The position numbers and the translations under genes are program-made. Under the pieces are notes generated by a model, which was given only the letters and a program-made list of their open reading frames with translations, was not told the origin of the DNA and ran no database searches. From Candidatus Oxydemutatoraceae bacterium (GTDB taxonomy: Bacteria; Pseudomonadota; Gammaproteobacteria; Poriferisulfidales; Oxydemutatoraceae), in assembly GCA_965237985.1 (NCBI GenBank), contig OZ250161.1, positions 104,078-168,077 of the forward strand: a DNA stretch of 64,000 bases, read 5' to 3'. Positions 972-60,756 of the stretch are shown in pieces (within the stretch, counting starts at the first letter, position 1; every line of letters begins with the position of its first letter).

Positions 972-1093
972 AGTTTTACTTCATTAAATCATTAGGAGTA
1001 ATGTCGAGAGCATCAGCGGTTTTTTTAACCGTATCAATTAAACCTTGTGATAGTGGTGTTTTGTTTCTTACCCACAAAATGATGAAACGGGTA

Positions 1094-1185
1094 TGGCGGA
1101 GAGAGAGGGATTCGAACCCTCGACACGGAATTCCCCGTATACACGCTTTCCAGGCGTGCGCCTTAGACCGCTCGGCCATCTCTCC
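1094..1185 (-). tRNA. tRNA-Ser (anticodon GGA), class II with long variable arm, CCA encoded
   Basis: The reverse complement GGAGAGATGGCCGAGCGGTCTAAGGCGCACGCCTGGAAAGCGTG...GGTTCGAATCCCTCTCTCTCCGCCA folds as a cloverleaf. The anticodon loop CTGGAAA gives anticodon GGA. Confidence 0.9.
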
Positions 1186-2851: not shown

Positions 2852-2865
2852 CAATATTTAGGAAA

Positions 2866-3604: not shown

Positions 3605-3623
3605 TACTTTTTTACTAATTTTT

Positions 3624-10536: not shown

Positions 10537-11456
10537 TTGCTGGCCCGCATTCGTGCCCCTTGGCACGGTCTTCAATAAGCGTTCCAGGCTGTCTGTGGTG
10601 TGCATGCCTGGGTCTTGTCATCGCGTTTTATTCGTTTTCTCTGCATGCGCAAAATACCGAGGAGGCGCCCCAGTTTGAGGCTCAACAGGTGCGGAGTTTT
10701 CAAGTCATTCTTTTGGAACGTGTTGAAAATCTGCATCGGGAACTGCAGGCCTTTCGGGGGCGAAATGAAGTGCTGCGTGCCGAATTGACGGCGTTGCGCA
10801 GCCAATTGGAATCCTTGGAAAAAACAGTGGCCGAATTGCCGGACACGAAGCATTTTTCAGTGCAGTTGTCTTCCCCGCATCACGTTGTCCTTCCTGGATC
10901 AGTGGGGCGGAGTGGTGAGCTTGGCAACGCGGTGCCGGATATGGTACCCGCCTCAACCCGACGGAAGACAGGCACCGCCCGTCTGGTAGTCGACAGCTCG
11001 CCACGTGCTTTGTCCGCAAGGTGGTCTCCAGATCTGTTGCCGGGAGCAACGCAGGGAGGAGCCGGTTCCGATGGCAGTGATGATCGGGATTACTACTTGG
11101 CACTTGCCCCGTTGAAAAGCGGGGACTTCGCGGTCATGAGGCACAGGCTCCAGGAATATGTGGATACACATCGTAGTGGTGTGTACTTGGCTTCTGCCTG
11201 GTACTGGATTGGGGAAAGCTGGTACGAACAGGGAGACTACAAAGAAGCACGGCAGATATTTGAACAGTTTCTACAGGATTACCCGCAACACGAGCGGTAT
11301 CACGATGTGCGTTTCAAGCTTGCTGAAATCTACCGTGCGCAAGGACAGATGAGGCAGGCGAGGATGTTTCTTGAAGCGCTTTCCGGCGTGGCGGATGAAC
11401 GGATCAGCACGGTAGCCCGACAACGTTTGAAAACGCTGGGTGATGTGCAGCAATGA
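10533..11456 (+). CDS. cpoB: Cell-division coordinator CpoB/YbgF (signal peptide, coiled coil, TPR repeats)
   Basis: ATG at 10533 overlaps the tolB stop (ATGA). The C-terminal TPR region reads ASAWYWIGESWYEQGDYKEARQIFEQF. Confidence 0.8.
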   Translation: MIAGPHSCPLARSSISVPGCLWCACLGLVIAFYSFSLHAQNTEEAPQFEAQQVRSFQVILLERVENLHRELQAFRGRNEVLRAELTALRSQLESLEKTVAELPDTKHFSVQLSSPHHVVLPGSVGRSGELGNAVPDMVPASTRRKTGTARLVVDSSPRALSARWSPDLLPGATQGGAGSDGSDDRDYYLALAPLKSGDFAVMRHRLQEYVDTHRSGVYLASAWYWIGESWYEQGDYKEARQIFEQFLQDYPQHERYHDVRFKLAEIYRAQGQMRQARMFLEALSGVADERISTVARQRLKTLGDVQQ

Positions 11457-11461
11457 GTTGA

Positions 11462-12130
11462 GTGCCTGAGCCGACTCCTTCCCTCCGCCTGATTCGCAAT
11501 GATTTGCGGGTGAGTGAAATCTTTTTTTCCATCCAGGGAGAGTCTTTGACGGCGGGTGTGCCGACTGTGTTCGTGCGTCTTGTTGGTTGTCCTCTGCGTT
11601 GTTCTTATTGTGATACGGAGTATGCCTTCCATGGCGGGAAATGGATGGACATGCAACAAGTGCTGCGTTCTGTCAGCCGTTACCCGACACGTTTTGTGAC
11701 CGTTACCGGGGGTGAACCATTGGTACAAAAAGCCTGCCTGTGCCTCTTGACCCGCTTGTGTGACAGTGGTTACCAGGTGTCACTTGAAACCAGTGGAGCT
11801 TTGTGCCTGAGTGGCGTTGACCTGCGCACCACCATTGTCATGGACATTAAGACCCCGGGCTCCGGGGAAGTGGCGAGGAATGATTTTGCAAACCTCAATT
11901 TTCTGAAAGAAACTGATCAGATCAAGTTTGTGATTTGTAATCGGAATGACTATGAGTGGTCCAGGAAGCAACTGATGAAACGCGACTTTTCCTGCAAAGT
12001 GCTTTTTTCTCCGGCATGGGGATGCCAGTCGCCGACAGAACTTGCCGAGTGGATAATGGCAGATGGCCTTGTCGTGCGTCTTCAGTTGCAGATCCACAAA
12101 GTGCTGTGGGGCGACACACCGGGCAGATGA
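11462..12130 (+). CDS. queE: 7-carboxy-7-deazaguanine synthase QueE (radical SAM)
   Basis: CPLRCSYCDT radical-SAM cluster motif. Size and neighbourhood with queC. Confidence 0.85.
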   Translation: MPEPTPSLRLIRNDLRVSEIFFSIQGESLTAGVPTVFVRLVGCPLRCSYCDTEYAFHGGKWMDMQQVLRSVSRYPTRFVTVTGGEPLVQKACLCLLTRLCDSGYQVSLETSGALCLSGVDLRTTIVMDIKTPGSGEVARNDFANLNFLKETDQIKFVICNRNDYEWSRKQLMKRDFSCKVLFSPAWGCQSPTELAEWIMADGLVVRLQLQIHKVLWGDTPGR

Positions 12131-12143
12131 GCACGGTTGACCG

Positions 12144-12875
12144 GTGCGCCGAGTTTCCCCCCGTCCTCGGACTTTCCTGATTTTGAGTCGCATAACAGAC
12201 AGGGGGCTCCCTCCGGCTGTGGTGTTGCTTTCCGGCGGAATGGATTCGGCAACTGTTTTGGCAGTAGCGGCGGGAGATTACAACTGCTACGCTTTGAGCT
12301 TCAGCTATGGTCAGAAACACGCAGCAGAACTGAATGCCGCGCAGGAAATTGCTCAACAGTTTGCGGTAAAAGAGCATGTCATTTTTCCTGTGGACCTGAC
12401 GATGTTTGGTGGTTCGGCTTTGACGGATGCGAAAATTCCGGTTCCGAAAAGGGGCGCTTCAGGGGAGGGAATCCCGAGTACCTATGTTCCGGCACGCAAC
12501 TTGATTTTTTTGTCGTTGGCTTTGGCCTGGGCGGAGACGCTTGGCAGTCGTCATATTTTCATTGGTGCCAACGTAGTGGATTATTCTGGTTATCCCGATT
12601 GCCGTCCGGAATTTTTCCGGTCTTTTGAAGCGACCGGGAGTCTTGCTACGCGGGCTGTTGAAAGTGGGCATTCGGTTGTGGTGCATAGCCCCTTGTTGGA
12701 AATGAGCAAAGCGGAAATTATTCTTTTGGGCGTAGGGCTGGGTTTGGATTATTCGCAAACGGTGTCATGCTATAGTGCGGATACACGTGGATTGGCGTGT
12801 GGCGCATGCGAGGCCTGCTTCTTCCGGAGGAGGGGTTTTGCGGAAGCGGGAATCCCGGATCCAACCAGATATTGA
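12144..12875 (+). CDS. queC: 7-cyano-7-deazaguanine synthase QueC
   Basis: PP-loop SGGMDSATV. C-terminal Zn-binding CxxC...CxxC. The true start may be internal. Confidence 0.85.
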   Translation: MRRVSPRPRTFLILSRITDRGLPPAVVLLSGGMDSATVLAVAAGDYNCYALSFSYGQKHAAELNAAQEIAQQFAVKEHVIFPVDLTMFGGSALTDAKIPVPKRGASGEGIPSTYVPARNLIFLSLALAWAETLGSRHIFIGANVVDYSGYPDCRPEFFRSFEATGSLATRAVESGHSVVVHSPLLEMSKAEIILLGVGLGLDYSQTVSCYSADTRGLACGACEACFFRRRGFAEAGIPDPTRY

Positions 12876-13395: not shown

Positions 13396-14307
13396 TTACT
13401 GCACAGGCGGCTTTCCTTCCTTTCGGGACCTATTGGCTGCACAGTCTTCGGTGGGCATTTCCTCAACCAGGAAACTCGGGTCCAGTCGTTTTTCAAACCA
13501 GTTTACCCGCCAGTCAAGATGCGGGCCGGTCGCGCGTCCCGTGGCACCGACTTCCCCGATGATTTCTCCCTGTTCTACACGGTCCTTGTGTCTGACCAAC
13601 AGTTTTTCAAGATGCAGGAAAGACGATGAAATGCCATGCCCGTGGTCTATGATGAGTGTCCCTCCTGAAAAAAACAGGTCATTTTCCGCGAGGGTTACTT
13701 CGCCGCCGGCAGGTGCGCGCACTGGCGTGTGTGTTGGACACGTCACGTCGATTCCGTAATGCGGCCTGGCAGACCTGCCGTTCAGTATCCTTTGACTGCC
13801 ATAAACCCCGGTCACAATTCCGTATAGAGGCCAGATAAACGGTCCGACAAAGTTACCGTTGGCGCTGTCCACTGCCCGTGCCTTGCGCACCATGCGGGTT
13901 TCTTTTCGAATGCGCGACCAGTGTTTTGGATCGGGGCTGACTTTTTGGGCCTGCAGTCCGCGGACATGTTGTGTCTGATAGGTGCGTTTCGTGATCGTCA
14001 AGGTTCTGGAATTCCTTTTCCCTCCGGGAGTTTCTATTCTCAGGGTAGCTTCGGCCTGTGCATCTCTTCCGAACCCGAAAACGAATTTTCCTGCGCGGGT
14101 CAGCTGTAGCCTTCGGTTGTCCAGGTATACGGAATTCCCAGGTCTTGTTGTCCCCGACACCAAGCCTCCCTGGGTAAAGTTTCCGTGAAGATCCAGTTGC
14201 GCCAGTGCGGGCCTGGCAAACAGCAGGCACAGCAAAATACAAAGTGTCTGCATTCCGCCCAGCTTGTTAAAATGTGGTCCCTGCGTCCGCATGGCATTTA
14301 TTTTCAC
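13396..14307 (-). CDS. M23 family metallopeptidase (murein DD-endopeptidase-like) with signal peptide
   Basis: HYGIDV...GHGISSSFLHL...GPHLDW M23 motifs. The N-terminus is hydrophobic. Confidence 0.8.
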   Translation of the reverse strand: MKINAMRTQGPHFNKLGGMQTLCILLCLLFARPALAQLDLHGNFTQGGLVSGTTRPGNSVYLDNRRLQLTRAGKFVFGFGRDAQAEATLRIETPGGKRNSRTLTITKRTYQTQHVRGLQAQKVSPDPKHWSRIRKETRMVRKARAVDSANGNFVGPFIWPLYGIVTGVYGSQRILNGRSARPHYGIDVTCPTHTPVRAPAGGEVTLAENDLFFSGGTLIIDHGHGISSSFLHLEKLLVRHKDRVEQGEIIGEVGATGRATGPHLDWRVNWFEKRLDPSFLVEEMPTEDCAANRSRKEGKPPVQ

Positions 14308-14570
14308 CCGCTTTCCCTGCGTTGTTCCGGGGGTTTCAAAAGCTCAAAGCATTTTTGGGAAACGCCTCCTGAACTGGTCTTGATGAGCCGTATAATAACC
14401 GCGTCCTTCGGACGGACCTGGGTGCTTCTTTATGGGTTGGTATGCCGTGCCGCACGGAAAAGGGGCAGTTATTTTTTCGTGAGACTCAGTTGATGGTTTA
14501 TGCTTGTGCAAATTGCTTGCCGACAGGTTTTCAGCGCACCGCCGGGCAGTTTCCGAACGATGGGATTTCA

Positions 14571-16568
14571 CTTTGAAAACAGGAGCATGAAGCCATGAGG
14601 CCTCCTGCACGTTTGTTGCTTGAAGACGGCACTGTTTTTTGTGGTTGCCAAGTGGGTGGGGACCAACGAGGGGATGGCGGTCGGCGAAGTGGTGTTCAAC
14701 ACGGCGATGACTGGTTACCGGGGGATATTGACCGCTCGTCTTGCCGACAGCAGATTATTACCTTGACCTGCCCGCATGTCGGCAACGTCGGGACAAACGG
14801 TGAAGATTCTGAATCGTCCAATTGAAAACAGGAGCATGAAGCCATGAGGCCTCCTGCACGTTTGTTGCTTGAAGACGGCACTGTCTTTTGTGGTCGCCAG
14901 GTGGGGACCGACGAGGGGATGCGGTCGGCGAAGTGGTGTTCAACATGGCGATGACTGGTTACCAGGAGATATTGACCGATCCGTCTTACCGACAGCAGAT
15001 TATTACCTTGACCTGCCCGCATGTCGGCAACGTCGGGACAAACGGTGAAGATTCTGAATCGTCCAATTGAAAACAGGAGCATGAAGCCATGAGGCCTCCT
15101 GCACGTTTGTTGCTTGAAGACGGCACTGTCTTTTGTGGTCGCCAAGTGGGGACCGACGAGGGGATGGCGGTCGGCGAAGTGGTGTTCAACACGGCGATGA
15201 CTGGTTACCGGGGGATATTGACCGATCCGTCTTGCCGACAGCAGATTATTACCTTGACCTGCCCGTATGTCGGAAACGTCGGGACAAACGGTGAAGATTC
15301 TGAATCGTCCAATTGAAAACAGGAGCATGAAGCCATGAGGCCTCCTGCACGTTTGTTGCTTGAAGACGGCACTGTCTTTTGTGGTCGCCAAGTGGGGACC
15401 GACGAGGGGATGCGGTCGGCAAGTGGTGTTCAACACGGCGATGACTGGTTACCGGGGGATATTGACCGATCCGTCTTACCGGCAGCAGATTATTACCTTG
15501 ACCTGCCCGCATGTCGGCAACGTCGGGACAAACGGTGAAGATTCTGAATCGTCCAATTGAAAACAGGAGCATGAAGCCATGAGGCCTCCTGCACGTTTGT
15601 TGCTTGAAGACGGCACTGTCTTTTGTGATCGCCAAGTGGGTGGGGACCAACGAGGGGACGGCGGTCGGCGAAGTGGTGTTCAACACGGCGATGACTGGTT
15701 ACCGGGGGATATTGACCGATCCGTCTTGCCGACAGCAGATTATTACCTTGACCTGCCCGTATGTCGGCAACGTCGGGACAAACGGTGAAGATTCTGAATC
15801 GTCCAATTGAAAACAGGAGCATGAAGCCATGAGGCCTCCTGCACGTTTGTTGCTTGAAGACGGCACTGTCTTTTGTGGTCGCCAAGTGGGGACCGACGAG
15901 GGGATGGCGGTCGGCGAAGTGGTGTTCAACATGGCGATGACTGGTTACCGGGGGATATTGACCGATCCGTCTTACCGGCAGCAGATTATTACCTTGACCT
16001 GCCCGCATGTCGGCAACGTCGGGACAAACGGTGAAGATTCTGAATCGTCCAATTGAAAACAGGAGCATGAAGCCATGAGGCCTCCTGCACGTTTGTTGCT
16101 TGAAGACGGCACTGTCTTTTGTGGTCGCCAGGTGGGGACCGACGAGGGGATGCGGTCGGCGAAGTGGTGTTCAACATGGCGATGACTGGTTACCAGGAGA
16201 TATTGACCGATCCGTCTTACCGACAGCAGATTATTACCTTGACCTGCCCGCATGTCGGCAACGTCGGGACAAACGGTGAAGATTCTGAATCGTCCAACTG
16301 AAAACAGGAGCATGAAGCCATGAGGCCTCCTGCACGTTTGTTGCTTGAAGACGGCACTGTTTTTTGTGGTTGCCAAGTGGGTGGGGACCAACGAGGGGAT
16401 GGCGGTCGGCGAAGTGGTGTTCAACACGGCGATGACTGGTTACCGGGGGATATTGACCGCTCGTCTTGCCGACAGCAGATTATTACCTTGACCTGCCCGC
16501 ATGTCGGCAACGTCGGGACAAACGGTGAAGATTCTGAATCGTCCAATTGAAAACAGGAGCATGAAGCC
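14571..16568 (+). repeat. Tandem array of eight partial copies of the carA 5' end (about 246 bp each; 5'-UTR with SD plus first 74 codons), head-to-tail directly upstream of intact carA
   Basis: ATGs at 14595, 14844, 15089, 15335, 15579, 15829, 16079 and 16320 each follow GAAAACAGGAGCATGAAGCC. Each copy ends ...GAAGATTCTGAATCGTCCAATTGA. The ninth ATG at 16569 is the intact gene. Confidence 0.9.
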
Positions 16569-17702
16569 ATGAGGCCTCCTGCACGTTTGTTGCTTGAAGA
16601 CGGCACTGTCTTTTGTGGTCGCCAAGTGGGGGCCGAGGGGATGGCGGTCGGCGAAGTGGTGTTCAACACGGCGATGACTGGTTACCAGGAGATATTGACC
16701 GATCCGTCTTACCGACAGCAGATTATTACCTTGACCTGCCCGCATGTCGGCAACGTTGGGACAAACGGTGAAGATTCTGAATCATCCACAGTATTTGCTT
16801 CTGGTCTGGTGTTGCGGGATGTTCCGCTCATGGAACAGAACTGGCGTAGCGAATGTTCTCTTCCTGACTTTTTGAAACTGCGGGGAGTGGTCGCGATTTG
16901 TGATGTGGATACCCGGCGCCTGACGCGACATTTACGTGATCAGGGTGCGAAAAACGGGGTTTTGTACAGCACAGACTATAGCGATGAAGAAGCAAAGAAA
17001 GCTCTGTTGGCATTTCGTGGACTGTCCGGCACTGATCTGGCAGCGGAAGTCAGCACCTCCCACGCCTACGACTGGGATGAAAGTGTGTGGTGCCCTGGAG
17101 GCGGGTTTGCCACCAGGAACGACGGTGATTTCTACGTGGTGGCATATGATTTTGGAATCAAGCGGACGATTTTGAGAATCCTGACCAGCCTGAATTGCAA
17201 AGTGCGTGTTGTGCCGGCTAAAACCCCGGTGGGTGAGGTTTTGTCCTTGCGACCTGATGGTGTGTTTTTGTCCAATGGCCCGGGAGATCCGGAGCCATGT
17301 TTTTACGCGATCGAGTCAGTGCGTAAGATCCTGGATGCAGGCATCCCTTTGTTCGGGATATGTTTGGGGCATCAGCTGCTGTCTTTGGCGTGTGGTGCGC
17401 GCACTGTGAAGATGAAATTTGGCCATCATGGTGCCAACCATCCGGTTGAAGAACTGGCGACCGGAAAAGTCTTGATTACTTCCCAGAACCACGGTTTTTG
17501 TGTTGACGAGAGTTTTTTGCCTTCCTGTTTGTCCGCGACCCACCGCTCCCTTTTTGACCAGAGCCTGCAGGGGGTTCATCACACCGGGAAACCGGCCTTC
17601 GGGTTCCAGGGACACCCCGAAGCCAGCCCCGGCCCGCACGATCTGGTACCGTTTTTCTCCCACTTCATGGATTTGATGAAAGATTGTGCCAAAAAGAACT
17701 GA
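16569..17702 (+). CDS. carA: Carbamoyl-phosphate synthase small subunit CarA
   Basis: N-terminus [21 protein letters not shown]...[20 protein letters not shown]. GATase triad region GICLGHQ. It overlaps the carB start. Confidence 0.9.
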
Positions 17703-20700
17703 TTTAGAAAGCATTCTAATTATTGGTGCCGGTCCGATTGTCATCGGTCAGGCGTGCGAATTTGATTATTCCGGAACGCAGGCATGCAGGGCGATTCGGG
17801 AAGAAGGTTACCGTGTCGTGTTGGTGAATTCCAACCCGGCGACCATCATGACCGATCCTGGCGAAGCCGACAGCACGTACGTGGAACCGCTCGAATGGCA
17901 ATCGGTTGCCAGAATCATTGAAAAAGAAAAGCCTTCGGCGGTGTTGTCGACGATGGGCGGGCAGACGGCATTGAATTGTGTCCTGGATCTGAATCGCCAT
18001 GGGGTGCTTTCTGAATTTGGAGTGGAAGTCATCGGTGCGCGTTCAGAGGTCATAAAAATTGCTGAGGACCGCGGGCTGTTTTGCAGGGCAATGAGCGAAA
18101 TCGGATTACTGACCGCTCGCTCCATGTTGGTGCGTGATTTTGCAGAAGCACAGGAAGCCCTCCGCCATTTTGCCTTTCCGCTGATGTTGCGTCCTTCGTT
18201 CACTCTGGGAGGTAGTGGCAGTAGTGTGGTCAGGAACCAGGAGGAATTTTCTTCCGCCGTCAGACGCGGGCTGGCTTTGTCGCCAAGCAGCGAGGTGTTG
18301 ATCGAGGAATCGCTCCTGGGTTGGGGCGAATATGAAATGGAAGCAGTCCGCGACCAGCGGGATAACTGCATCATCGTATGTTCGATTGAAAATGTGGACC
18401 CGATGGGGGTGCACACAGGGGATTCCATTACCGTTGCACCGGCATTGACCCTGACGGACAAGGAATACCAGCTGATGCGCGACGCCACGGTCTCTGTTTT
18501 GCGCAAAGTGGGTGTGGATACTGGTGGTTCCAACGTGCAGTTTGCGGTCCATCCAGAAACCGGTCGGCAAGTCGTCGTGGAGATGAATCCGCGGGTGTCG
18601 CGTTCTTCTGCGCTGGCTTCCAAAGCGACTGGTTTTCCGATCGCGAAAGTAGCGGCGAAACTGGCGGTGGGTTACACGCTGGATGAATTGGAAAATACCA
18701 TCAGCGGCCAGCGCATGCCGGCTTCTTTTGAGCCGACTCTGGATTATGTTGTGACCAAGGTGCCACGTTTCACGTTTGAGAAATTCTCGCAAACCGTGGA
18801 TTGTTTGAACACACAAATGAAATCGGTCGGTGAAGTTCTCGCCATGGGTCGCTCTTTCAAGGAATCTTTGCAAAAAGCGCTTTGCGCTCTGGAAACCGGG
18901 GTGGCAGGCCTGGACGAATGCACGCCTCCTGCTCACGAAAACGCAAGAAACTGGATCAGGAAAGAGTTGTCCATTTGCAGTTCCAGACGTTTGTGGCAGG
19001 TCGCACAGGCATTTCGAATCGGGCTTACCGTGGATGAGGTGTTTGTGCTGACGCAGATATCGCGTTGGTTTTTATGGCAAATCAGCGAAATTGTGGATAT
19101 GGAAAGGGATCTGGCAGGAGAATCTCTGGGCAAAATGAGCCGGGAGCATTTGTTTGCCTGCAAACAGTCCGGTTTTTCCGATGCCCGTCTTGCGAAACTG
19201 CTTGATGTGTCTGAAGAATCAGTCAGAAAGCGGCGCACGGAGCTTGAGATCAGGCCGGTTTTCAAGCGTGTGGATAGCTGCGCTGCTGAATTTGCAACAA
19301 ACACCTGCTACATGTACTCGACCTATGAAGAAGAATGCGAGGCAGTTCCAGACAACAGTGCGACAAAAATCATGATTTTAGGCAGTGGCCCGAATCGAAT
19401 CGGGCAGGGCATTGAATTTGATTACTGTTGCGTGCACGCGGGACTGGCTTTGCGGGAAATGGGCTATCAAACACTGATGGTGAATTGCAATCCGGAAACG
19501 GTATCTACGGATTACGACATTTCTGACCGTTTGTATTTTGAACCGCTGACTATGGAGCATGTCAGTGAAATTCTTCATGTGGAAAAACCTTGGGGCGTGG
19601 TGGTTCAATATGGTGGACTGACGCCTCTGAAGCTTGCCCGGCCGCTTGAACGTGCCGGGGTGCGTGTGCTTGGGACTTCGCCAGATTCAATCGACCTGGC
19701 CGAAGACCGTGAACGCTTCAAGGCCTTGCTCACCAGATTGGGGTTGCGTCAGCCATCCAGCGCCATGGTGAACACTGCCGAGGATGCGTTTGCTTTCGCC
19801 AGTATCCAGGGTTACCCCTTGGTAGTACGGCCTTCTTACGTCCTCGGTGGCAGAGCCATGGAGATTGTGCATGACTGGGAGGAGCTTGAAGCTTATATGC
19901 GACGGGAAAGGCATGTACAGACTGGAAAAGCGGTTTTGCTGGACAGCTTTCTTTGTGATGCCACAGAAATTGATGTGGATGCCATGTGCGATGGAGAAGA
20001 GGTGTTAATCGGCGGGATCATGCAGCATATCGAACAGGCCGGTATTCATTCCGGCGACTCCGCCTGCTCGCTGCCGCCCCATTCCCTATCGGAACGGGTG
20101 CTGGCGGAAATTACCCGCCAGGTTAAAGTGCTTGGCAAAGCGTTGGCAGTGAAAGGTTTGATGAACATGCAATGTGCAGTGCGTGATGAGGAGATTTACA
20201 TATTGGAAGTCAATCCGCGTGCCTCACGTACAGTGCCATTTGTTTCCAAGGTGACCGGGTTGCCCCTTGTGAAAATTGCCGCCCGCTGCATGATGGGACA
20301 AAGTCTTGCTTCGCAGGGAGTGAAGGCCAGACCCGTCAAAGACTTTTTTGCAGTGAAAGAAGTAGTATTCCCTTTTCTCAAATTTCCCGGTGTCGATGCA
20401 CTGATGGGGCCGGAAATGAAGTCTACCGGTGAGGTGATGGGCCTCGGGAGAAGCTTTGGCGAGGCTTTTTTGAAATCTCAGATTGCTGTCGGGAACCGTA
20501 TGCCAAGGTCGGGAACGGTGCTGTTAAGCGTACAGGATGCAGACAAGGCAGGGGCCGTTGAGTTGGCTCGCCTGTTCCTCGATCTGGGGCTGTCCCTGAT
20601 GGCGACCAAGGGCACGGCACGAGCTTTGCATGCGGCTGCTATGGAATGCGAGCATGTTTTCAAAGTGAAAGAGGGGAAACGGCCGCATGTCGTGGACCGA

Positions 20701-20904
20701 ATCAAGCGAAAGGAGGTGGTTTTGATCGTGAATACCACGGAAGGGCGACAGGCTGTCGCGGATTCTTTTTCTATTCGCCGCGAAGCCTTGGTGAATGAAA
20801 TCTGCTACTCCACCACTTTGGCGGGAGCTTTTGCACTGGTGAAAGCCCTGCATTGTCAGCCGGAACTGTTGTGCAGCCTGCAGGAGCTGCACAATCTCAA
20901 TTAA
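17686..20904 (+). CDS. carB: Carbamoyl-phosphate synthase large subunit CarB
   Basis: 1072 aa. N-terminus [30 protein letters not shown] and duplicated ATP-grasp halves. Confidence 0.95.
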
Positions 20905-24367: not shown

Positions 24368-24541
24368 TGGGGTTTCAACGGCCCCGGCATCATTTCTTGA
24401 CCCCTCACTGCCTTTGTGCTCTGGTGATGGTTTTGTGTTTCCTCAGTCAATGGGAGAATAGACGGAAACAAAGTGCGACCACACGTTCACTTGTAAATGC
24501 AACATCCAGCAGGTAGCACTGGCATTCGGACATCGGCAGAT

Positions 24542-25234
24542 GGGGCTGATTTGTGGCTACGGTCAGTGGTTTCCGTCCTGTTTCAGTCGTCCGGATTTTT
24601 TAGTTTTTTTGCAGTGCGTAAATGGTTGCGAGTGCCTGGCGAGGAGACAGTTCGTTTGGGTCCAGTTTTTTCAGAGCTTTCAATGCCGGGTGGTGGTGGT
24701 CAAATGCGAGTTTCGGTTGCTGCGGGGAGGGTTTTTGGACACACTGCATGGCTTCCAGCTCCTCCAGCTTCTGGGGCTGATTTGTGGCTACGGTCAGTGG
24801 TTTCCGTCCTGTTTCAGTCGTCCGGATTTTTTAGTTTTTTTGCAGTGCGTAAATGGTTGCGAGTGCCTGGCGAGGAGACAGTTCGTTTGGGTCCAGTTTT
24901 TTCAGAGCTTTCAATGCCGGGTGGTGGTGGTCAAATGCGAGTTTCGGTTGCTGCGGGGAGGGTTTTTGGACACACTGCATGGCTTCCAGCTCCTCCAGCT
25001 TCTGGGGCTGATCTGTGGCTACGGTCAGTGGTTTCCGTCCTGTTTCAGTCGTCCGGATTTTTTAGTTTTTTTTGCAGTGCGTAAATGGTTGCGAGTGCCT
25101 GGCGAGGAGACAGTTCGTTTGGGTCCAGTTTTTTCAGAGCTTTCAATGCCGGGTGGTGGTGGTCAAATGCGAGTTTCGGTTGCTGCGGGGAGGGTTTTTG
25201 TTTTTGGGCACACTGCATGGCTTCCAGCTCCTCC
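24542..25234. repeat. 231-bp unit x3 comprising the last ~63 codons of mutS plus ~42 bp of 3' flank; two extra copies lie downstream of the mutS stop
   Basis: Units start at 24542, 24773 and 25004. The third overlaps the genuine mutS 3' end (stop 25045). Confidence 0.85.
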
Positions 25235-27630
25235 AGCTTCGCAAGCGCCTGTTTCAGGGTGGCTTCCGGAAGACCTGCCAGGCGGGCGACCTGGATGCCG
25301 TGGCTGCGGCTGGTGCCTCCGACTTTTACTTTGTGCAAAAACACGACTTCTCCGGCGTGCTCTATTGCGTCCATGTGGACATTTTGCACTTGTGGGTATT
25401 TTTCGCAGAGCGTTGTCAATTCGAAATAGTGTGTGGCAAACAATGTCAGTGAGTGGTTCCGGCTTGCCAGTTCTGCCGCACATGCCCAGGCCAGGCTGAG
25501 TCCGTCGAAGGTACTTGTTCCCCTTCCGATTTCATCCATCAGTACCAGGCTGTCCGGCCCGGCGTTATTCAAAATGTTGGCTGATTCCGTCATTTCCACC
25601 ATGAATGTAGAACGTCCCGAGGCGATGTCATCTGCCGCGCCAATCCTCGTGTAAATGCAATCCAGGGGGCCGATGGTGGCTTCTGTAGCAGGCACCCAGG
25701 CGCCGATATGTGCCAGTAAGGCAATTTGAGCTGTTTGGCGCATGTAGGTGGATTTTCCGCCCATATTCGGTCCGGTGATTACCAGCATGCGTTGTTTCTC
25801 ATCCAGATCGAGGTCGTTTTCCACGAAAATGTTTTCCTGGCTGAGTTCTACGACGGGATGTCGTCCGCCCTTGATGTGTATCCCCCGGGAGGCAGCCAGT
25901 GTCGGTCGGCAGTACTTTCGTTCTTCTGCGCATTTGGCAAGGGTGGTAATGACATCTGTCGCAGCCAGAGCGGCTGATGTTGCCTGCAGGCGACTGATGA
26001 AGGGGCGGAAATAAAGCAGGATTTCCCGGAACAGTTTTTTCTCTTTGGCAAGTGCTTGATCGCGGGCGGCAAGTACACGGCCTTCCAGAGATTTCAATTC
26101 GGCAATGGAGTAACGTTCTGAGTGTTTTAGCGTTTGCATTCTTCGGTAGTCCTCCGGAGCTTTCTCAGCAACTGCGCGTGGCATCTCTATGTAATAGCCG
26201 TGCACCCGGTTGTAAGCGACGCGCAAATTATTGACTCCTGTCCTGCGCCGTTCCCGATTTTCAATTTCTATCAAATGTCCGGAAACGTTTTTATGCAGTC
26301 CGCGAAAATAGTCCAATTCCGGGTCGTATTTGGAGCGAATGACTCCGCCATCACGTATGGTGGCAGGGGGAGTGTCCACAATTGCCTGTGCAAGATGTTG
26401 TGCGAGTTCCGGTTCGGGGTGCAGGTTGGCATCAAGATTTTTGGCCAGCGGGCTTGTCAGAGTGCCCAGCGTAGTTTTCAAAACCGGCACCAGCTCCAGA
26501 GTTTCCCGAATGCCGTTCAGATCTCGGGGTTTTGCTGTTTCCAGAACCACGCGTGCCAGCATGCGTTCCAGGTCATTACTGCGTCCCAGTATGGCGCGTA
26601 GATTGTGCAGGGTTTCCTTATGTACCAGTTCGCCGATCAGTTCCTGGCGTTTTTGCAGGGCTTCGCGTTGCCGTAAGGGACTGGCAAACCAGCGCCGCAA
26701 ACAGCGCGCTCCCATGCTGGTAACGGTGTGATCGTGAATGCCAACGAGCGTTCGCTTGTGATCGCCTGAAGTCGATTTTTCTATTTCCAGGCAACGGCGA
26801 CTTGTGGCGCTGAGCTGCACAAAATCTTCATCGTTTTCCACGATGAGGCTACGCAAATGTGGCAACTCTGATTTCCTGGTGTCCAGCACGTATTGCAAAA
26901 GCGCCCCGGCAGCTGCAACAGCCGTGTCTTTGTTTATGCAACCGAATCCTTCCAGACCCAGCACCTCAAGCTGCCGGCATAATAGCCTGCGTGCATTTCT
27001 TATCAGAAAAACTGATGCCGGCAAGCTTTGCGGCTGGTGCTTTTCCAAAGTGAAAGTGCGGTTTTCACTGACCAGAAGTTCAGCCGGATGCAGGCGGTCT
27101 ATTTCATCATCCAGTGCGGCGTGGCTGGCAGTCTGGCGGATAGTCAAACGACCGGAACTGAGTTCAAGCGTGGCGATGCCGAATACCGGCTGTTTTGTTT
27201 TTTCATCGCTATGTACGGCCATGACCAGATTGTCTCGTTGCTCATCCAGCAGTGTGTCTTCAACGACGGTTCCCGGAGTGACCACGCGCACCACTTTGCG
27301 CTCCACAGGCCCGCGGCCTTGTACCGGGTCGCCGACCTGGTCGCAGATTGCCACAGTCTTTCCCAGGCGAACCAGTTTGGCGAGATAGCTTTCCACCGCA
27401 TGTACTGGCACACCAGCCATGGGCACTTTCTTATTGCCGTAACGGCCGCGGGAAGTCAAAGTAATATCAAGGAGCTTTGCTGCTTTTTCGGCATCGTGAA
27501 AAAACAGTTCATAAAAATCCCCCATATGATAGAAAAGCAGGGTGTCCGGGTATTCAGACTTTATGCGCAGGTACTGCTGCATCACGGGGGTGTGTTCGCT
27601 GATCATGAGTGTGCTGCTCTCCAGGGGCAT
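25045..27630 (-). CDS. mutS: DNA mismatch repair protein MutS
   Basis: 861 aa. N-terminus [28 protein letters not shown]. Walker [10 protein letters not shown]. Confidence 0.95.
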
Positions 27631-32916: not shown

Positions 32917-33696
32917 TCAACAGCGCTTTGGCAGCCATGTCCCTGTATTGCTTTGCATGGCGTTGAGAAGAGCGATGTACGTGAAATCCAGTGCTTTTTG
33001 TACAGCGGCTTCCAAAGGATTGGCGCAGGCCATGTACGTGGCAATCGCGCTTGCCAATGTGCAGCCACTGCCATGATAGGTGTGCCGGAGGCGGCGGCTG
33101 CGAAAAGTCCGTGTGGTTTTTTTTGTCTGGTACAGCCGATGAATCAATTCTTGCCGTGTGATTTTCACGCTGGTGACCAATATGGCGGTGCAACCAGAGT
33201 CGAGGAGGACCTGTGCTGCCATGTCGGCATTGTGGGTTCCTGGGGCCAGTGTCAGTGCTTCTTCGTAGTTGGGGGTCGCCAGGCATGCCATGGGCAACAA
33301 CTGCTTTTGCAAAGCCGCGATTCCAGTTGTAGTGTTGAGTGACTGGCCGGTTCCAGCATTGATGACCGGGTCGACGACTAAAGGTACAGGTGGAAATTCC
33401 CGCAAGACCTCGCTGACTGTTTTCGCATGCGGCCCCAGCATTCCAGTTTTGATCAGAGAGATTTTGAACTCTGAAAAAACCGTTTGAATTTGAGCCCGCA
33501 AATCGCGGGCACTTATGGCCTGCCAGGAAAGGACTGCGTTTCCGCTTTGTGTGGTGTTGCAGGCAAGTGCACAGACCGGATGTCCCCCGCAGGCGGAAAC
33601 CGTTTCTATGTCGGCCTGCAACCCGGCACCTCCGGTAGGATCGAATCCAGAAACGCATAGCACGACTGGTATTTTTCTGTTTTTTATTTTAACCAT
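32917..33696 (-). CDS. thiD: Hydroxymethylpyrimidine/phosphomethylpyrimidine kinase ThiD
   Basis: VVLCVSGFDPTGGAGLQADI N-terminus. PfkB-family kinase. 259 aa. Confidence 0.85.
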   Translation of the reverse strand: MVKIKNRKIPVVLCVSGFDPTGGAGLQADIETVSACGGHPVCALACNTTQSGNAVLSWQAISARDLRAQIQTVFSEFKISLIKTGMLGPHAKTVSEVLREFPPVPLVVDPVINAGTGQSLNTTTGIAALQKQLLPMACLATPNYEEALTLAPGTHNADMAAQVLLDSGCTAILVTSVKITRQELIHRLYQTKKTTRTFRSRRLRHTYHGSGCTLASAIATYMACANPLEAAVQKALDFTYIALLNAMQSNTGTWLPKRC

Positions 33697-33942
33697 GGCG
33701 ACAGTTTAATGAGTACGACGACGCATTGTAGAAAATAACGGCGGTGCGCAAGGAAGGGTTTTTAGTGGCGTGGTATGCGCAGTGTTCGGTTGTCGTGAAC
33801 GCATAGCACGACTGGTATTTTTCTGTTTTTTATTTTAACCATGGCGACAGTTTAATGAGTACGACGACGCATTGTAGAAAATAACGGCGGTGCGCAAGGA
33901 AGGGTTTTTAGTGGCGTGGTACGCGCAGTGTCCGGTTGTCGT
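33653..33942. repeat. 145-bp unit x2: thiD start codon, first 14 codons and ~100 bp of upstream leader duplicated in tandem
   Basis: AACGCATAGCACGACTGGTATTTTTCTGTTTTTTATTTTAACCATGGCGACAG... occurs at 33653 and 33798. Only two base differences between copies. Confidence 0.85.
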
Positions 33943-34173
33943 GTAGGAGAAGTTGGGAATATCCGGTTTTTGTTTCTGCTGACCTCACTCTGTATCAGGC
34001 ACTCTGTCAAACCAGGGAGCCAAGCAGCCATGCTGCTTCCTGACGAAGACTGCCGCCGGGTAGAATAGCTCGCCTTGCAGTGCAAAGTTTGAAATGAAAC
34101 TGTGTTTTGTAAGAATTGCCTGGCGTAGTTGTCTGTGGCGGAGGCGTTGGTTTTCCTGTTTGGAGTAGTCGAG

Positions 34174-39848: not shown

Positions 39849-40529
39849 TTATTTCGCTTTGTCCGTGGCAGACTGGATCATGACTTTCATTGCGTTTATG
39901 GTTTTCTGGTAATCGGAAGAACCAAAAATTGCTGAACCGGCGACGAAAGTGTCAGCTCCTGCACTTTTGGCGGCGGCAACGTTTTCGGCATTGACTCCCC
40001 CGTCGACCTGTAGGCGGATTTGTCGTCCGCTGGCATCAATGCGGCAGCGTGCCTGTTCCAGTTTCTGGTACGCCAGCGGGAGGAATGTTTGTCCACCAAA
40101 GCCTGGATTGACTGACATCACTAAAATCATGTCTACTTTGTCGAGGACGTAATCCAGGCAGGAAAGTCCGCTCGCCGGGTTGAAAGCCAAGCCGTTTTTA
40201 CAACCACAATTACGGATCAGTTGGAGGCTTCGGTCCACGTGGTCGGTTGCTTCCGGGTGGAAGCTGATGTAATCGGCGCCGGCTTCAGCAAAGGCGGTGA
40301 TTAAACCGTCCACCGGTCGGGTCATGAGATGCACATCGATCGGGGCGTTGATGCCGTAATTCCGCAGGGCGCTGCAGACCATGGGGCCAAAACTCAAGTT
40401 GGGAACATAATGATTGTCCATGACATCAAAATGCACCATGTCGGCACCGGCATCGAGAACAGCAGACACTTCTTCTCCGAGTCGGGCAAAGTCCGCGGCG
40501 AGTATGGAGGGACAGATTTGGTCTTTCAT
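39849..40529 (-). CDS. rpe: Ribulose-phosphate 3-epimerase Rpe
   Basis: [21 protein letters not shown]...[17 protein letters not shown]. 226 aa. Confidence 0.9.
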
Positions 40530-42975
40530 ATGCTGGGTGAGCCATTATCCACCGGTCGGGTCATGAGATGCACATCGATCGGGGCGTTGATGCCGTAATT
40601 CCGCAGGGTGCTGCAGACCATGGTGTCAACACTCAAGTTGGGAACAGAATGGGCACATCGTGTTGGTTCATGACATCAAAATGCACCACGTTTGCGCCGG
40701 CATCGAGAACAGCAGACACTTCTTCTCCGAGTCGGGCAAAGTCTGCGGCGAGTATGGAGGGACAGATTTGCTCTTTCATAAGCCGGGTGAGCCATTATCC
40801 ACGGCTCGGGTCATGAGATGCACATCGATCGGGGCGTTGATGCCGTAATTAAGGGCGCTGCAGACCATGGGGCCACAACTCAAGTTGGGAACATAATGAT
40901 TGTCCATGACATCAAAATGCACCATGTTTGCGCCGGCATCGAGAACAGCAGACACTTCTTCTCCGAGTCGGGCAAAGTCCGCGGCGAGCATGGAGGGGCA
41001 GATTTGCTCTTTCATATGCTGGGTGAGCCATTATCCACGGCTCGGGTCATGGGAGGCACATCTGGTCGGGGAGCTGATGCCGTAATTCCGCAGGGCGCTG
41101 CAGACCATGGGGCCACAACTCAAGTTGGGAACAGAACAGTTGTCCATGACATCAAAATGCATCCTGTCGCGTCGGCGCCGGCATCGAGAACAGCAGACAC
41201 TTCTTCTCCGAGTTGGGCAAAGTCCGCGGCGAGTATGGAGGGACAGATTTGCTCTTTCATATGCTGGGTGAGCCATTATCTACCGGTCGGGTCATGAGAT
41301 GCACATCGATCGGGGCGTTGATGCCGTAATCCCGCAGGGCGCTGCAGACCATGGGCTCAAAACTCAAGTTGGGAACAGAACAGTTGTCCATGACATCAAA
41401 ATGCACCATGTCGGCGCCGGCATCGAGAACAGCAGACACTTCTTCTCCGAGTCGGGCAAAGTCCGCGGCGAGTATGGAGGGACAGATTTGGTCTTTCATA
41501 TGCTGGGTGAGTAATTATCCACGGCTCGGGTCATGGGAGGCACATCTGGTCAGGGAGCTGATGCCGTAATTCCGCAGGGCGCTGCAGACCATGGGGCCAA
41601 AACTCAAGTTGGGAACATAATGATTGTCCATGACATCAAAATGCACCACGTTTGCGCCGGCATCGAGAACAGCAGACACTTCTTCTCCGAGTCGGGCAAA
41701 GTCTGCGGCGAGTATGGAGGGACAGATTTGCTCTTTCATAAGCCGGGTGAGCCATTATCCACGGCTCGGGTCATGAGATGCACATCGATCGGGGCGTTGA
41801 TGCCGTTATTCCATAGGGCTCTGCAGACCATGGGGCCAAAACTCAAGTTGGGAACATAATGATTGTCCATGACATCAAAACACACCATGTTTGCGCCGGC
41901 ATCGAGAACAGCAGACACTTCTTCTCCGAGTCGGGCAAAGTCCGCGGCGAGCATGGAGGGGCAGATTTGCTCTTTCATATGCTGGGTGAGCCATTATCCA
42001 CCGGTCGGGTCATGAGATGCACATCGATCGGGGCGTTGATGCCGTAATCCCGCAGGGCGCTGCAGACCATGGGCCCAAAACTCAAGTTGGGAACAGAACA
42101 GTTGTCCATGACATCAAAATACACCATGTCGGCGCCGGCATCGAGAACAGCAGACACTTCTTCTCCGAGTCGGGCAAAGTCTGCGGCGAGCATGGAGGGA
42201 CAGATTTGCTCTTCCATATGCTGGGTGAGCCATTATCCACGGCTCGGGTCATGGGAGGCACATCGATCGGGGCGTTGATGCCGTTATTCCATAGGGCGCT
42301 GCAGACCATGGGGCCAAAACTCAAGTTGGGAACATAATGATTGTCCATGACATCAAAATGCATCCTGTCGGCGCCGGCGCCGGCATCGAGAACAGCAGAC
42401 ACTTCTTCTCCGAGTCGGGCAAAGTCTGCGGCGAGCATGGAGGGACAGATTTGCTCTTTCATATGCTGGGTGAGCCATTATCCACGGGTCGGGTCATGAG
42501 AGGCACATCGATCGGGGCGTTGATGCCGTTATTCTGCAGGGTGCTGCAGACTGTGTGGGGTCAACACTCGGGTTGGGCGACAGAATGGGTACATCGTGCT
42601 GGTTCATGACATCAAAATGCATCCTGTCGCGTCGGCACCGGCATCGAGAACAGCAGACACTTCTTCTCCGAGTCGGGCAAAGTCCGCGGCGAGTATGGAG
42701 GGACAGATTTGCTCTTTCATATGCCGGGTGATCCATTATCCACGGCTCGGGTCATGGGAGGCACATCTGGTCGGGGCGTTGATGCCGTAATCCCGCAGGG
42801 CGCTGCAGACCATGGGGCCAAAACTCAAGTTGGGGATAGAATGGGTACATTGTGCTGGTTCATGACATCAAAATGCATCCTGTCGCGTCGGCGCCGGCAT
42901 CGAGAACAGCAGACACTTCTTCTCCGAGTCGGGCAAAGTCTGCGGGGGCAGAGAGGGACGGATTTGCTCTTTCAT
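40530..42975 (-). repeat. Tandem array of ten partial copies of the rpe 5' end (about 240 bp each; start codon plus first ~75 codons), head-to-tail directly upstream of intact rpe
   Basis: Minus-strand ATGs at 40779, 41015, 41276, 41499, 41739, 41978, 42217, 42462, 42720 and 42975 each begin MKEQ/DQICPS[IM][19 protein letters not shown]. Most end [13 protein letters not shown] with the TGA overlapping the next ATG. Confidence 0.9.
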
Positions 42976-58368: not shown

Positions 58369-58557
58369 AGACAGAATGATGAGTAATTATCTTTTCAAGA
58401 AATGTCTTCCGAAGGGTTTTTGAAAAGGCTCAGTGAGCAGGTAGAAGCCCAATATGTTCTTCCTCATGCTAAGGGGGTTCAGAATGGTCCGGAAAGGGAA
58501 CGGATGAAAAAAATAATGACGGTGAACGCAACTGTCTGTTTTGTCGTGAATATAAAG

Positions 58558-60756
58558 TGTAGAAGTTTAGACCCAATCTGACACATCACTCAATCAAGCT
58601 GAGCGCAGCGAAGCTTGATTGAGTGAGAGTTACCCGTTTAGATGTAATTGCAATATTAACATCCAAACAAAGAGGTAACTCTCATGATCCATACTAACGA
58701 TAAAGTCATTAAATATAAAGTCGGCCTACTCAATCTGGCTGAAGAACTCGGAAACGTCTCAAAAGCCTGCAAGATGATGGGCGTATCCAGAGATACTTTC
58801 TATCGATACAAAGCCGCTGCTGATGAAGGTGGCATTGAAGCACTTTTTGATCAAAACAGGCGTATCGCGAACCTCAAAAATAGAGTTGATCCTGCGATTG
58901 AATCCATCGTCGTTGAACACGCTCTGGAAGAACCTGCCCATGGGCAGACCCGAACCAGCAATGAGCTACGCAAAATGGGGACATATTATTTCGCCGACGG
59001 GCGTACGAAGTATTTGGTTACGCCATAACCTGGCTTGCTTTAAATGTAGAAGTTTAGACCCAATCTGACACATCACTCAATCAAGCTGAGCGCAGCGAAG
59101 CTTGATTGAGTGAGAGTTACCCGTTTAGATGTAATTGCAATATTAACATCCAAACAAAGAGGTAACTCTCATGATCCATACTAACGATAAAGTCATTAAA
59201 TATAAAGTCGGCCTACTCAATCTGGCTGAAGAACTCGGAAACGTCTCAAAAGCCTGCAAGATGATGGGCGTATCCAGAGATACTTTCTATCGATACAAAG
59301 CCGCTGCTGATGAAGGTGGCATTGAAGCACTTTTTGATCAAAACAGGCGTATCGTGAACCTCAAAAATAGAGTTGATCCTGCGATTGAATCCATCGTCGT
59401 TGAACACGCTCTGGAAGAACCTGCCCATGGGCAGACCCGAACCAGCAATGAGCTACGCAAAATGGGGACATATTATTTCGCCGACGGGCGTACGAAGTAT
59501 TTGGTTACGCCATAACCTGGCTTGCTTTAAATGTAGAAGTTTAGACCCAATCTGACACATCACTCAATCAAGCTGAGCGCAGCGAAGCTTGATTGAGTGA
59601 GAGTTACCCGTTTAGATGTAATTGCAATATTAACATCCAAACAAAGAGGTAACTCTCATGATCCATACTAACGATAAAGTCATTAAATATAAAGTCGGCC
59701 TACTCAATCTGGCTGAAGAACTCGGAAACGTCTCAAAAGCCTGCAAGATGATGGGCGTATCCAGAGATACTTTCTATCGATACAAAGCCGCTGCTGATGA
59801 AGGTGGCATTGAAGCACTTTTTGATCAAAACAGGCGTATCGTGAACCTCAAAAATAGAGTTGATCCTGCGATTGAATCCATCGTCGTTGAACACGCTCTG
59901 GAAGAACCTGCCCATGGGCAGACCCGAACCAGCAATGAGCTACGCAAAATGGGGACATATTATTTCGCCGACGGGCGTACGAAGTATTTGGTTACGCCAT
60001 AACCTGGCTTGCCTTAAAGATCGACTCAAAGCACTATCCGATAAAGTGGCCACTGAAGGCCTGATTCTTACTGAACCTCAAGTCGCTGCCATGGAACGCA
60101 AACAAGATGACGATCAGGCCTGTGGTGAGATAGAAACAGCCCACCCTGGCTATTTGGGCTCGCAAGACACTTACTATGTGGGTATATTCAAGGATATTGA
60201 CCGAGTCTATCAGCAGACGTTTGTTGATACTTACAGTAAAGTCGCTCACGCCAAGCTCTACACCACCAAAACGCCGATTACCGCCGCTGATATGCTCAAT
60301 GATCGTGTGTTGCCGTTCTATGAGGAACAAGCACTTCCCATGCTGCGGATTCTCACCGACCGTGGTACAGAATATTGTGGTCGAGCTGACCAACATGATT
60401 ACCAGCTCTACCTGGCTTTGAATGATATTGAGCACACCAAAACCAAAGTCAGGTCACCGCAAACCAATGGCATTTGTGAACGCTTCCACAAGACCCTTCT
60501 CAATGAGTTTTACCAAGTGACCTTGCGTAAGAAAATCTATCAATCGATAGAAGAATTACAAATTGATCTTGACAAATGGCTCATCAAATACAATACTCAA
60601 CGAACTCACCAAGGCAAAATGTGCTGTGGGAGAACGCCGATGGAAACTCTCATCGACGGCAAATCAATCTGGAAGGAAAAGTCTTTGAACTAAACTTAAC
60701 CTGACAGTCGGTTGCTGATAAACGGGTAACTGTCAGATCAAGTCTGAATTTCTACA
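58558..60756 (+). mobile_element. IS481-family insertion sequence whose left end (terminal repeat, leader and first 114 codons) is tandemly triplicated (3 x 487 bp)
   Basis: Terminal repeats TGTAGAAGTTTAGACCCAATCTGACA at 58558 and TGTCAGATCAAGTCTGAATTTCTACA ending at 60756. Unit starts at 58558, 59045 and 59532. rve-type DDE ORF at 59860..60693. Confidence 0.8.
59658..60693 (+). pseudogene. IS481-family transposase (HTH plus rve DDE domain) with a +1 frameshift near 59960 relative to the inverted copy
   Basis: ORF A ends ...ELRKMGTYYFADGRTKYLVTP-stop while ORF B continues HIISPTGVRSIWLRHNL. The copy at 63.3 kb reads ELRKMGTFVSPTGVRSIW in one frame. The difference is GACATATTATTTCGCC versus GACATTTGTTTCGCC. 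Confidence 0.7.

Follow-up and report, generated by a model that had tools for sequence, protein, structure and literature searches.

Classical gene amplifications in bacteria span kilobases to hundreds of kilobases, comprise whole genes, are selected for dosage, and collapse fast when unselected. The array that is the subject of this report lies in a 64,000-nucleotide stretch of DNA (the window) from a Candidatus Oxydemutatoraceae bacterium (contig OZ250161.1, positions 104,078 to 168,077 of the forward strand), where copies of the 5' end of carA stand head-to-tail in front of the intact carA gene. Unlike classical amplifications, the units involved are sub-genic, confer no dosage, have diverged by 3-12%, and belong to a lineage in which such arrays occur at ~70 times the normal density. 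The carA array is regarded here, with a probability of roughly 0.7, as an illegitimate tandem segmental duplication that expanded, was tolerated, and is decaying neutrally.

Several described systems share one or more properties with this locus. The MIRU-VNTR loci of Mycobacterium belong to one dispersed family, with 40-100-bp units present at many loci. They resemble the arrays described here in that units lie between operon genes, contain small open reading frames (ORFs) phased with the flanking genes, and are polymorphic in copy number; unlike MIRU-VNTR, each array here derives from its own adjacent gene. Short ORFs upstream of a pyrimidine or arginine gene, on the same transcript, are also found in the pyrBI attenuator and in the P1/P2 control region of E. 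coli carAB. Those leaders, however, occur singly, are conserved, and are tied to a terminator or to regulator binding sites, whereas the carA array is absent in relatives, has no terminator, and is decaying. For organelle genomes there is, in addition, the tandem-duplication-random-loss model.

In E. coli, RecA-independent template switching expands and deletes tandem repeats of 101-787 bp and is suppressed by Uup and RadD (PMC7145654), and the arrays of the present lineage resemble those repeats in their head-to-tail local copies, in junctions with 0-5 nt of homology, in copy numbers that expand and contract, and in units of 130-640 bp, which lie within the operating range of that process. 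Tandem duplication followed by gradual degeneration is described for avian mitogenomes (PMC8435663), and there, as at carA, gene pieces beside a functional copy decay as pseudogenes and are tolerated in a small, host-confined genome. The organelle cases usually involve two copies of multi-gene blocks near the control region, whereas here the 5' end of a single gene is present in 9-11 copies, and arrays occur at many loci of a bacterial chromosome of 2 Mb.

The repeats of Borg elements (PMC9879509) have, in the examples considered, units of ~18-21 nt that are essentially perfect, A-enriched, and, inside ORFs, always divisible by three in length. They are, like the present arrays, pervasive and genome-specific, generated de novo from local sequence, in some cases anchored in gene ends, fast-evolving, variable within populations in how many units they hold, and virtually absent from related genomes. 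Unlike Borg repeats as characterized there, the units of this lineage measure 130-2000 bp, extend across gene boundaries, are free of composition bias, and have diverged by substitution and frameshift, and those at carA, at 244-250 bp, are 95% identical and include indels. The closest analogues are bacterial duplication-amplification, organelle tandem duplication with degeneration, and, as regards genome-specific pervasiveness, Borg repeats; what sets the arrays apart from all three is a combination of sub-genic units, a position at gene boundaries, multi-copy expansion, 3-12% divergence, and occurrence at many housekeeping genes. Full-text literature searches returned no report of a bacterial lineage with tandem arrays at gene edges, which, for the literature searched, is absence of evidence only.

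Anatomy of the carA array

Tandem Repeats Finder places the array at 14573..16788, with a period of 246 bp, 9.0 copies (as assembled), 95% matches, 1% indels, and a score of 4016, and the 23-mer GAAAACAGGAGCATGAAGCCATG occurs exactly nine times in the window, at the array's nine positions and nowhere else. The central claim of an earlier note on this DNA, that nine carA starts are stacked head-to-tail before the intact gene, is thus borne out, and the pattern far exceeds what chance could give. The repeated segment comprises the carA ribosome-binding site, the start codon, and the first ~74 codons (position -22 to about +224). All nine units are direct and abut without spacers; eight are extra copies, and the ninth is the 5' end of intact carA. 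Unit lengths among the extra copies run from 244 to 250 bp, a narrower range than the 241-250 bp originally proposed, and the note's list of start codons stands for eight positions, the seventh being 16075 and not 16079. The units and the genes that follow them, all on the plus strand, are:

Unit 1, 14573..14821, plus strand: 249 bp, ATG at 14595; 76-aa ORF, interior scrambled by +4 (GTGG) and -1 indels
Unit 2, 14822..15066, plus strand: 245 bp, ATG at 14844; a -1 indel leads to a stop after 36 codons; ancestral codons kept at the conserved motif
Unit 3, 15067..15312, plus strand: 246 bp, ATG at 15089; in-frame 75-aa CarA N-terminal fragment ending in SESSN and a stop
Unit 4, 15313..15556, plus strand: 244 bp, ATG at 15335; 67-aa ORF, shifted out of frame by two 1-nt deletions
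Unit 5, 15557..15806, plus strand: 250 bp, ATG at 15579; an uncompensated +4 insertion gives a 69-aa frameshifted ORF
Unit 6, 15807..16052, plus strand: 246 bp, ATG at 15829; in-frame 75-aa CarA N-terminal fragment
Unit 7, 16053..16297, plus strand: 245 bp, ATG at 16075; sequence identical to unit 2, 36-aa ORF
Unit 8, 16298..16546, plus strand: 249 bp, ATG at 16320; scrambled 76-aa ORF, near-identical to unit 1
Unit 9, 16547..16788, plus strand: authentic ribosome-binding site and carA 5' end, ATG at 16569; without the 3-nt insertion of the other units, orthologue state GAEGM
Intact carA, 16569..17702, plus strand: 377 aa, with CPSase_sm_chain (PF00988) and GATase (PF00117) domains; continuous with unit 9
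carB, 17686..20904, plus strand: 1072 aa, initiated at a GTG; overlap with the end of carA, as in relatives

The overlap of carA and carB, also part of the first description, amounts to 17 nt. At the DNA level every extra unit ends in ...GAATCGTCCAA(T/C)TGA. This TGA begins 21 nt before the next ATG, not 24 nt as had been stated, and leaves 18 nt between stop and start (the stop of unit 1 ends at 14825 and the next ATG is at 14844). Each unit offers the arrangement AGGAG-N9-ATG and, where the frame reaches it, a stop at that TGA, and the Shine-Dalgarno sequence, the ATG, and the linker stop are intact in 8/8 extra units. The earlier description of each unit as a Shine-Dalgarno sequence plus codons 1-74, ending in SESSN, therefore holds for the initiation signals and for the DNA segment; it fails for the codons, because the reading frame is broken in six of the eight extra copies, and SESSN is not encoded in frame in all of them.

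The extra units share a history separate from that of unit 9. All eight carry a derived 3-nt insertion (GTDEGM versus GAEGM) that is absent from unit 9 and from orthologues, and alignment of the nine shows that they are distinguished from one another by deletions of single bases, an insertion of GTGG, and substitutions, for which parsimony counts 14 changes. Divergence among units averages 2.8%, with a maximum of 4.5%; unit 2 equals unit 7 exactly, and units 1 and 8 are one base apart. These (near-)identical, non-adjacent pairs imply at least two secondary duplication or conversion events. Evidence for exchange among units beyond them is limited, the four-gamete test being positive at 2/105 site pairs. 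The array shows no clear higher-order repeat, since at periods of 494 and 740 bp the match gains just 1%.

Its many copies and regular period are what would be expected of a mobile or dispersed repeat family (a miniature inverted-repeat transposable element (MITE), satellite, integron-like, or CRISPR-like array) that came to lie beside carA by chance. Such an origin is scarcely credible here, as the unit consists of nothing but the 5' end of carA and can be aligned with the orthologue base-for-base. The 246-bp units follow one another directly and lack the unique spacers of a CRISPR; no inverted repeats flank the array, as they would an insertion sequence (IS) or MITE; the unit motif is found nowhere else in the window; and each sister array described below was built from its own local gene. 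The earlier note's statement that the array is neither a CRISPR nor an IS accordingly stands.

Decay of the extra copies

The same note went further and saw in the array a maintained train of ~76-codon mini-ORFs, a proposal that the coding content of the units contradicts. From their own ATGs the extra units encode between 36 and 76 aa, and a contiguous CarA frame is found in units 3 and 6 only. Units 1 and 8, which do reach the terminal SESSN-TGA, attain it only via a compensating pair of +4 and -1 indels that scrambles ~28 internal residues. Even the two in-frame units are altered in the most conserved CarA motifs (Q->R, E->G, Y->C, or H->Y), and unit 3 has all four of these changes at conserved positions.

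The pattern of substitution points in the same direction. Across the eight extra units, substitutions at codon positions 1:2:3 number 3:6:5, with no third-position bias, whereas unit 9 differs from the orthologue in a relative (L081, introduced below) by 4:3:27 over the same 220 nt, and the whole of carA by 38:23:144, the real gene being under purifying selection. Because changes in the extra copies fall about equally on all three codon positions, in contrast to those in the real gene, the extra copies are neutral pseudo-fragments without protein-level function, and they are decaying neutrally. Their substitution spectrum, with 13 transitions of all types and one transversion, shows no adenine bias of the kind associated with diversity-generating retroelements, which argues against such an element, and no reverse transcriptase was found among the Pfam-scanned ORFs around the locus and across the window.

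Units 3 and 6 provide the one argument for a functional peptide, for example one that modulates the CarA-CarB interface or serves there as a decoy, and whose dosage the array would raise: both are in frame, and their 75-aa products match PF00988 with E = 7e-25. The match is confined to positions 1-67 of the 126 in the CPSase_sm_chain model, which is half a domain. With in-frame copies in only 2/8 cases, non-conservative changes in the most conserved motif, no third-position bias where the real gene shows a strong one (3:6:5 versus 4:3:27), and relatives that lack the peptide altogether, a functional family of 75-76-aa CarA N-terminal proteins is very improbable. Nor is the array a structured RNA: scanning of the whole window against Rfam yielded two tRNAs and no match in the array, and one unit folded as RNA was no more stable than shuffled controls (z = 0.01). 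A practical consequence is that the array is an annotation trap, in which gene callers emit strings of bogus small 'CarA' ORFs.

Ancestral state and age of the array

A comparison of the carA upstream region with that of relatives, as the earlier note had proposed, was made with five related loci, L081-L085. The first of these, L081 (CarA 87% identical), was found by protein search and lies on a circular 1.92-Mb contig; L082-L084 belong to the same 90% CarA cluster and come from another sample, at coverages of 67x, 13x, and 8x; and L085 (CarA 69% identical) lies on a 1.34-Mb contig. Gene order in L081-L084 is tolQRAB-cpoB-queE-queC-HIT-M23 peptidase / carA-carB-greA, with mutS further downstream where the sequence reaches it. 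In L085, carA-carB-greA-mutS is kept and the upstream arrangement is different, with the HIT gene adjoining carA. A carA array is present in 0/5 of these loci; the gap between carA and the upstream gene measures 240-370 bp in L081-L084 and 72 bp in L085, and contains no repeat. Among the matches listed, the closest CarA from GTDB species is 64% identical, and the closest named relatives are Gammaproteobacteria at ~64-65% identity.

Since none of the five related loci has it, the array is lineage-specific and young. The mean divergence of 2.8% among units, set against a third-position divergence of 38% between carA and its L081 orthologue, likewise indicates that the array formed well after the lineages split. 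The extra units moreover keep the ancestral TCGTCCAA, as well as C and G at two third positions, where the real copy now has TCATCCAC, T, and A, so that they are in effect fossils, recording how the 5' end of carA read when it was duplicated.

These retained bases bear on the possibility that the array, its copy number, or the order of its units stems from a mis-assembled repeat. The (near-)identical pairs 1/8 and 2/7 could come from an assembler walking a loop, and no independent assembly of the carA array was found in JGI metagenomes, where the array junction and the conserved carA 5' motif gave 0 matches each. However, an artefact could not have produced ancestral bases that the real copy has lost, and the units are not exact copies, being set apart by indels and by 14 substitution sites whose pattern is structured and shared in part. 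The source contig, at 2,000,500 bp, would imply long reads that span the 2.2 kb concerned, and analogous arrays are found on five long contigs that were assembled independently, from three samples, with coverage of 8-67x. An assembly artefact is, on this evidence, quite unlikely.

Sister arrays in the window

The first description of the array implied that it was singular, which it is not: the same architecture recurs in the window at rpe, thiD, and an IS, and in relatives at trpE and cpoB. The window holds four further gene-edge arrays, three at 5' ends and one, of mutS, at a 3' end:

rpe array, 40309..42975, minus strand: 10.9 copies of 236-258 bp, 88% matches; rpe start and first ~73-79 codons
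thiD array, 33652..33943, minus strand: 146 bp x 2.0; ~100 nt of upstream sequence and first 15 codons (start at 33696); blunt junction with 0 nt homology
mutS array, 24541..25240, minus strand: 231 bp x 3.0; last ~64 codons, stop, and ~40 nt downstream of mutS (25045..27630)
IS array, 58553..60018, plus strand: 487 bp x 3.0, 99% matches; left end and ~110 codons of an IS481-like transposase

Each was built from its own local gene, and their junctions show 0-5 nt of homology, with 4-5 nt of microhomology (TAAA) in the IS array. The rpe array ends in intact rpe (39849..40529, minus strand), and its start codons lie at 42975, 42720, 42462, 42217, 41978, 41739, 41499, 41260, 41015, 40779, and 40529; most copies are frameshifted, and substitutions fall on codon positions at 19:16:15. 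MutS remains intact at 861 aa despite the triplication of its gene's 3' end.

The 18-nt linker between rpe units, TAATGGCTCACCCAGCAT, does not resemble what precedes the first unit (...CACAACAAAA|ATG). Perhaps it stems, with divergence, from rpe codons ~75-80, in which case the real rpe would be without its native 5' untranslated region. Rpe matches P0125-P0127 were considered as independent assemblies of the rpe array and rejected, being unrelated, internally duplicated Rpe sequences.

Arrays across the lineage

Arrays in relatives extend both the range of unit sizes and the set of genes affected. A 134-bp array across the tolB/cpoB boundary is present in 4.0, 5.4, and 6.0 copies in three co-occurring strains, and a 638-bp array at the 3' end of the M23 peptidase gene in 3.0, 4.0, and 3.2 copies, again in three co-occurring strains. 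The M23 arrays span 7449-9374 in L082, 6811-9371 in L083, 7466-9455 in L084, and 8545-9531 in L085, the last being an independent array of 323-bp units, so that duplication at this gene is recurrent in two separate relatives; the M23 gene of the window (13396-14307) has no array. Each partial M23 copy is still an ORF with a Peptidase_M23 match. A further locus, L086, has 152 bp x 10.8 over the start of trpE (from -7 onward), between rpe and trpE, and 280 bp x 5 at the 3' end of trpC, the latter present twice through a larger duplication (array spans 10741-12348, 15903-17316, and 18325-19760); it has no array upstream of rpe.

Over the lineage, units range from 134 to 1960 bp, and arrays occur at both 5' and 3' ends. 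A fixed unit of ~240 bp, as suggested by 246, 239, 231, and 487 (2x243) bp, was rejected, as units of 134, 142, 146, 152, 196, 280, 323, 638, and 1960 bp also exist, and a strict preference for 5' ends was rejected in view of the 3'-end arrays of mutS, M23, and trpC.

Arrays with a period of >=100 bp make up 12.0% of the window and, over the 188 kb of lineage loci, 15.8%, compared with 0.06% of controls, which consisted of 1.35 Mb around carA from 80 other Gammaproteobacteria loci. Array density is 10.7 per 100 kb in the lineage versus 0.15 in controls, a difference of ~70-fold, with the proviso that L082-L084, being homologous loci, do not count as independent samples. The carA array is a single case of the excess of tandem arrays at gene boundaries that runs through this lineage. 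Taken by itself it represents a known kind of event, a non-functional and decaying partial duplication; the unusual part is the frequency of such events in this lineage. The source of the excess could be a higher expansion rate, a lower deletion rate, or weak selection in a genome of 1.3-3 Mb that is probably host-associated.

A lineage in which 12-16% of sampled DNA is large-unit repeat derived from the edges of housekeeping genes runs counter to deletion bias and to the instability of duplications. It offers a natural experiment on the suppression of repeat expansion, for which Uup/RadD-type functions, single-strand exonucleases, and effective population size are candidates, and equally on the distance between a promoter and an essential gene, and on the share of duplication in genome-size differences between close relatives.

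Two circular contigs of 1,918,571 and 2,997,607 bp encode CarA proteins in one 90%-identity cluster, and a build-up of repeats and insertion sequences may lie behind the gap of >1 Mb between these genomes. In L081, positions 1-1364 belong to an array of 196-bp units, with at least 6.9 copies and 91% matches, that runs off the end of the locus, ~1.1 kb upstream of tolQ.

Formation and tolerance of the carA array

At carA, codon ~74 is fused to position -22 at the novel junction TCCAA|TTGAAAAC, for which the ancestral flanks have no bases in common, and the array is contiguous, derived from the local gene, and absent in relatives, as is characteristic of local tandem segmental duplication. In the pathway that best fits these features, a 246-bp chromosomal piece would have been duplicated once by illegitimate, homology-free joining, the founder extra copy would then have gained the 3-nt insertion, and reiteration to eight extra copies would have followed by misaligned template switching or unequal sister-strand exchange. 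Selection would act only as a filter, for a duplication inside a gene destroys it, and one that straddles the 5' or 3' edge spares one intact copy. The array is tolerated because the promoter-distal copy is contiguous with the rest of carA and has its own Shine-Dalgarno sequence and ATG.

Two features lie upstream of the array:

M23 peptidase gene, 13396..14307, minus strand: divergent, bounds the locus; same neighbour in relatives
Conserved upstream block, 14380..14414, plus strand: TTGATGnnnnnTATAATAACCG followed by the hairpin CGTCCTTCGGACG; common to relatives

In alignment with relatives the upstream block TATAATAACCG and the CGTCCTTCGG hairpin are conserved, and this is likely to be the carA promoter or leader region. 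The real carA start codon now lies ~2.15 kb downstream of it. Scans for promoters and terminators found none on the plus strand inside the array; one weak minus-strand promoter-like match per unit was reported, the same sequence nine times. Because the array contains no terminator, and because intact carA keeps its own AGGAG-N9-ATG, the gene can be expressed by read-through, and transcription would proceed from the upstream promoter region across ~2 kb of array. Along the way ribosomes would probably translate short junk peptides from the units and re-initiate.

The tiny ORFs that overlap just before the carA start form a separate feature of this region. At 14580-14600 the sequence ATG AAG CCA TGA provides a stop that overlaps the carA ATG, and in relatives (L081 9985-10005) two stacked, ATGA-linked ORFs of 3-4 codons precede the carA start. 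Copied into every unit of the array, they may represent a conserved translational-coupling leader.

An arrangement of stacked ribosome-binding sites and upstream ORFs could itself be regulatory. As a copy-number-tunable leader, the array would modulate carAB through ribosome loading, translational coupling, mRNA stabilization, or titration of a regulator, with expansion and contraction serving as a contingency switch. The AGGAG-N9-ATG and linker TGA in all eight extra units suit this proposal, as do the 18-nt stop-to-start spacing, which is appropriate for re-initiation, the location of the lineage's three highest-copy arrays at gene 5' ends without exception, and the variation in copy number between strains at sister arrays. 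However, the five related loci have a normal leader and no array, indels and substitutions accrue as in neutral DNA, and the lineage has equivalent arrays within genes and at their 3' ends, positions that preclude any role as a leader. An attenuator, moreover, would be expected to show an RNA structure signal and a terminator or antiterminator; none was detected in the array, which has no plus-strand terminator, no Rfam family, and a fold z of 0.01. A regulatory function of this kind is accordingly judged unlikely.

Four considerations nevertheless weigh against neutral duplication and decay as a complete account. The intact Shine-Dalgarno sequence, ATG, and linker stop in all eight extra units could hint at constraint, with the caveat that the 5' 63 nt of the units are invariant and the sample is small. 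Neutral drift alone leaves unaccounted for the ~9-11 copies at the three independent 5' arrays of carA, rpe, and trpE, as against 3-5 at 3' arrays, and it likewise gives no account of left breakpoints that fall 0-22 nt from the start codon in the same three genes. Finally, bacteria are usually deletion-biased and tandem duplications usually unstable, so that 3-12% divergence needs special explanation.

A broader proposal, put forward tentatively and rather doubtful as a whole, is that this uncultured lineage, with genomes of 1.3-3.0 Mb, has a genome-architecture syndrome not described before, in which an expansion-biased replication or repair activity, or a defect, stacks sub-genic copies at gene boundaries and inflates genomes (1.92 versus 3.0 Mb between strains of one 90%-identity CarA cluster). 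The high-copy 5' arrays (carA x9, rpe x11, trpE x10.8), with starts 0-22 nt from start codons, may then be made or retained by a process linked to the initiation of transcription or translation, and may act as copy-number-tunable leaders of core metabolic genes.

Other features of the window

The IS481-like element that carries one of the sister arrays extends over 58553-60740, with its left terminal repeat inside the triplicated part, and its transposase frame switches near 59950-59990, which marks either a frameshifted pseudogene or a programmed frameshift. At the opposite end of the window, positions 1-6424 hold a tRNA-Ser (1094-1185), after which come a Fic/DOC protein and a pair of tyrosine-integrase genes, one of them fused to NikA-like and HicB-like segments; this region is probably an integrated mobile island.

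Large ORFs without a Pfam domain are present at 21759-23630, 47315-49180, 51101-54532, 57130-58368, and 61214-62236. The ORF of 1143 aa has homologues in the same lineage only, and that of 623 aa contains in-frame 111-bp repeats rich in T, S, Q, and P. These large ORFs resemble lineage-specific secreted or effector-type proteins, which would point to a host-associated lifestyle.

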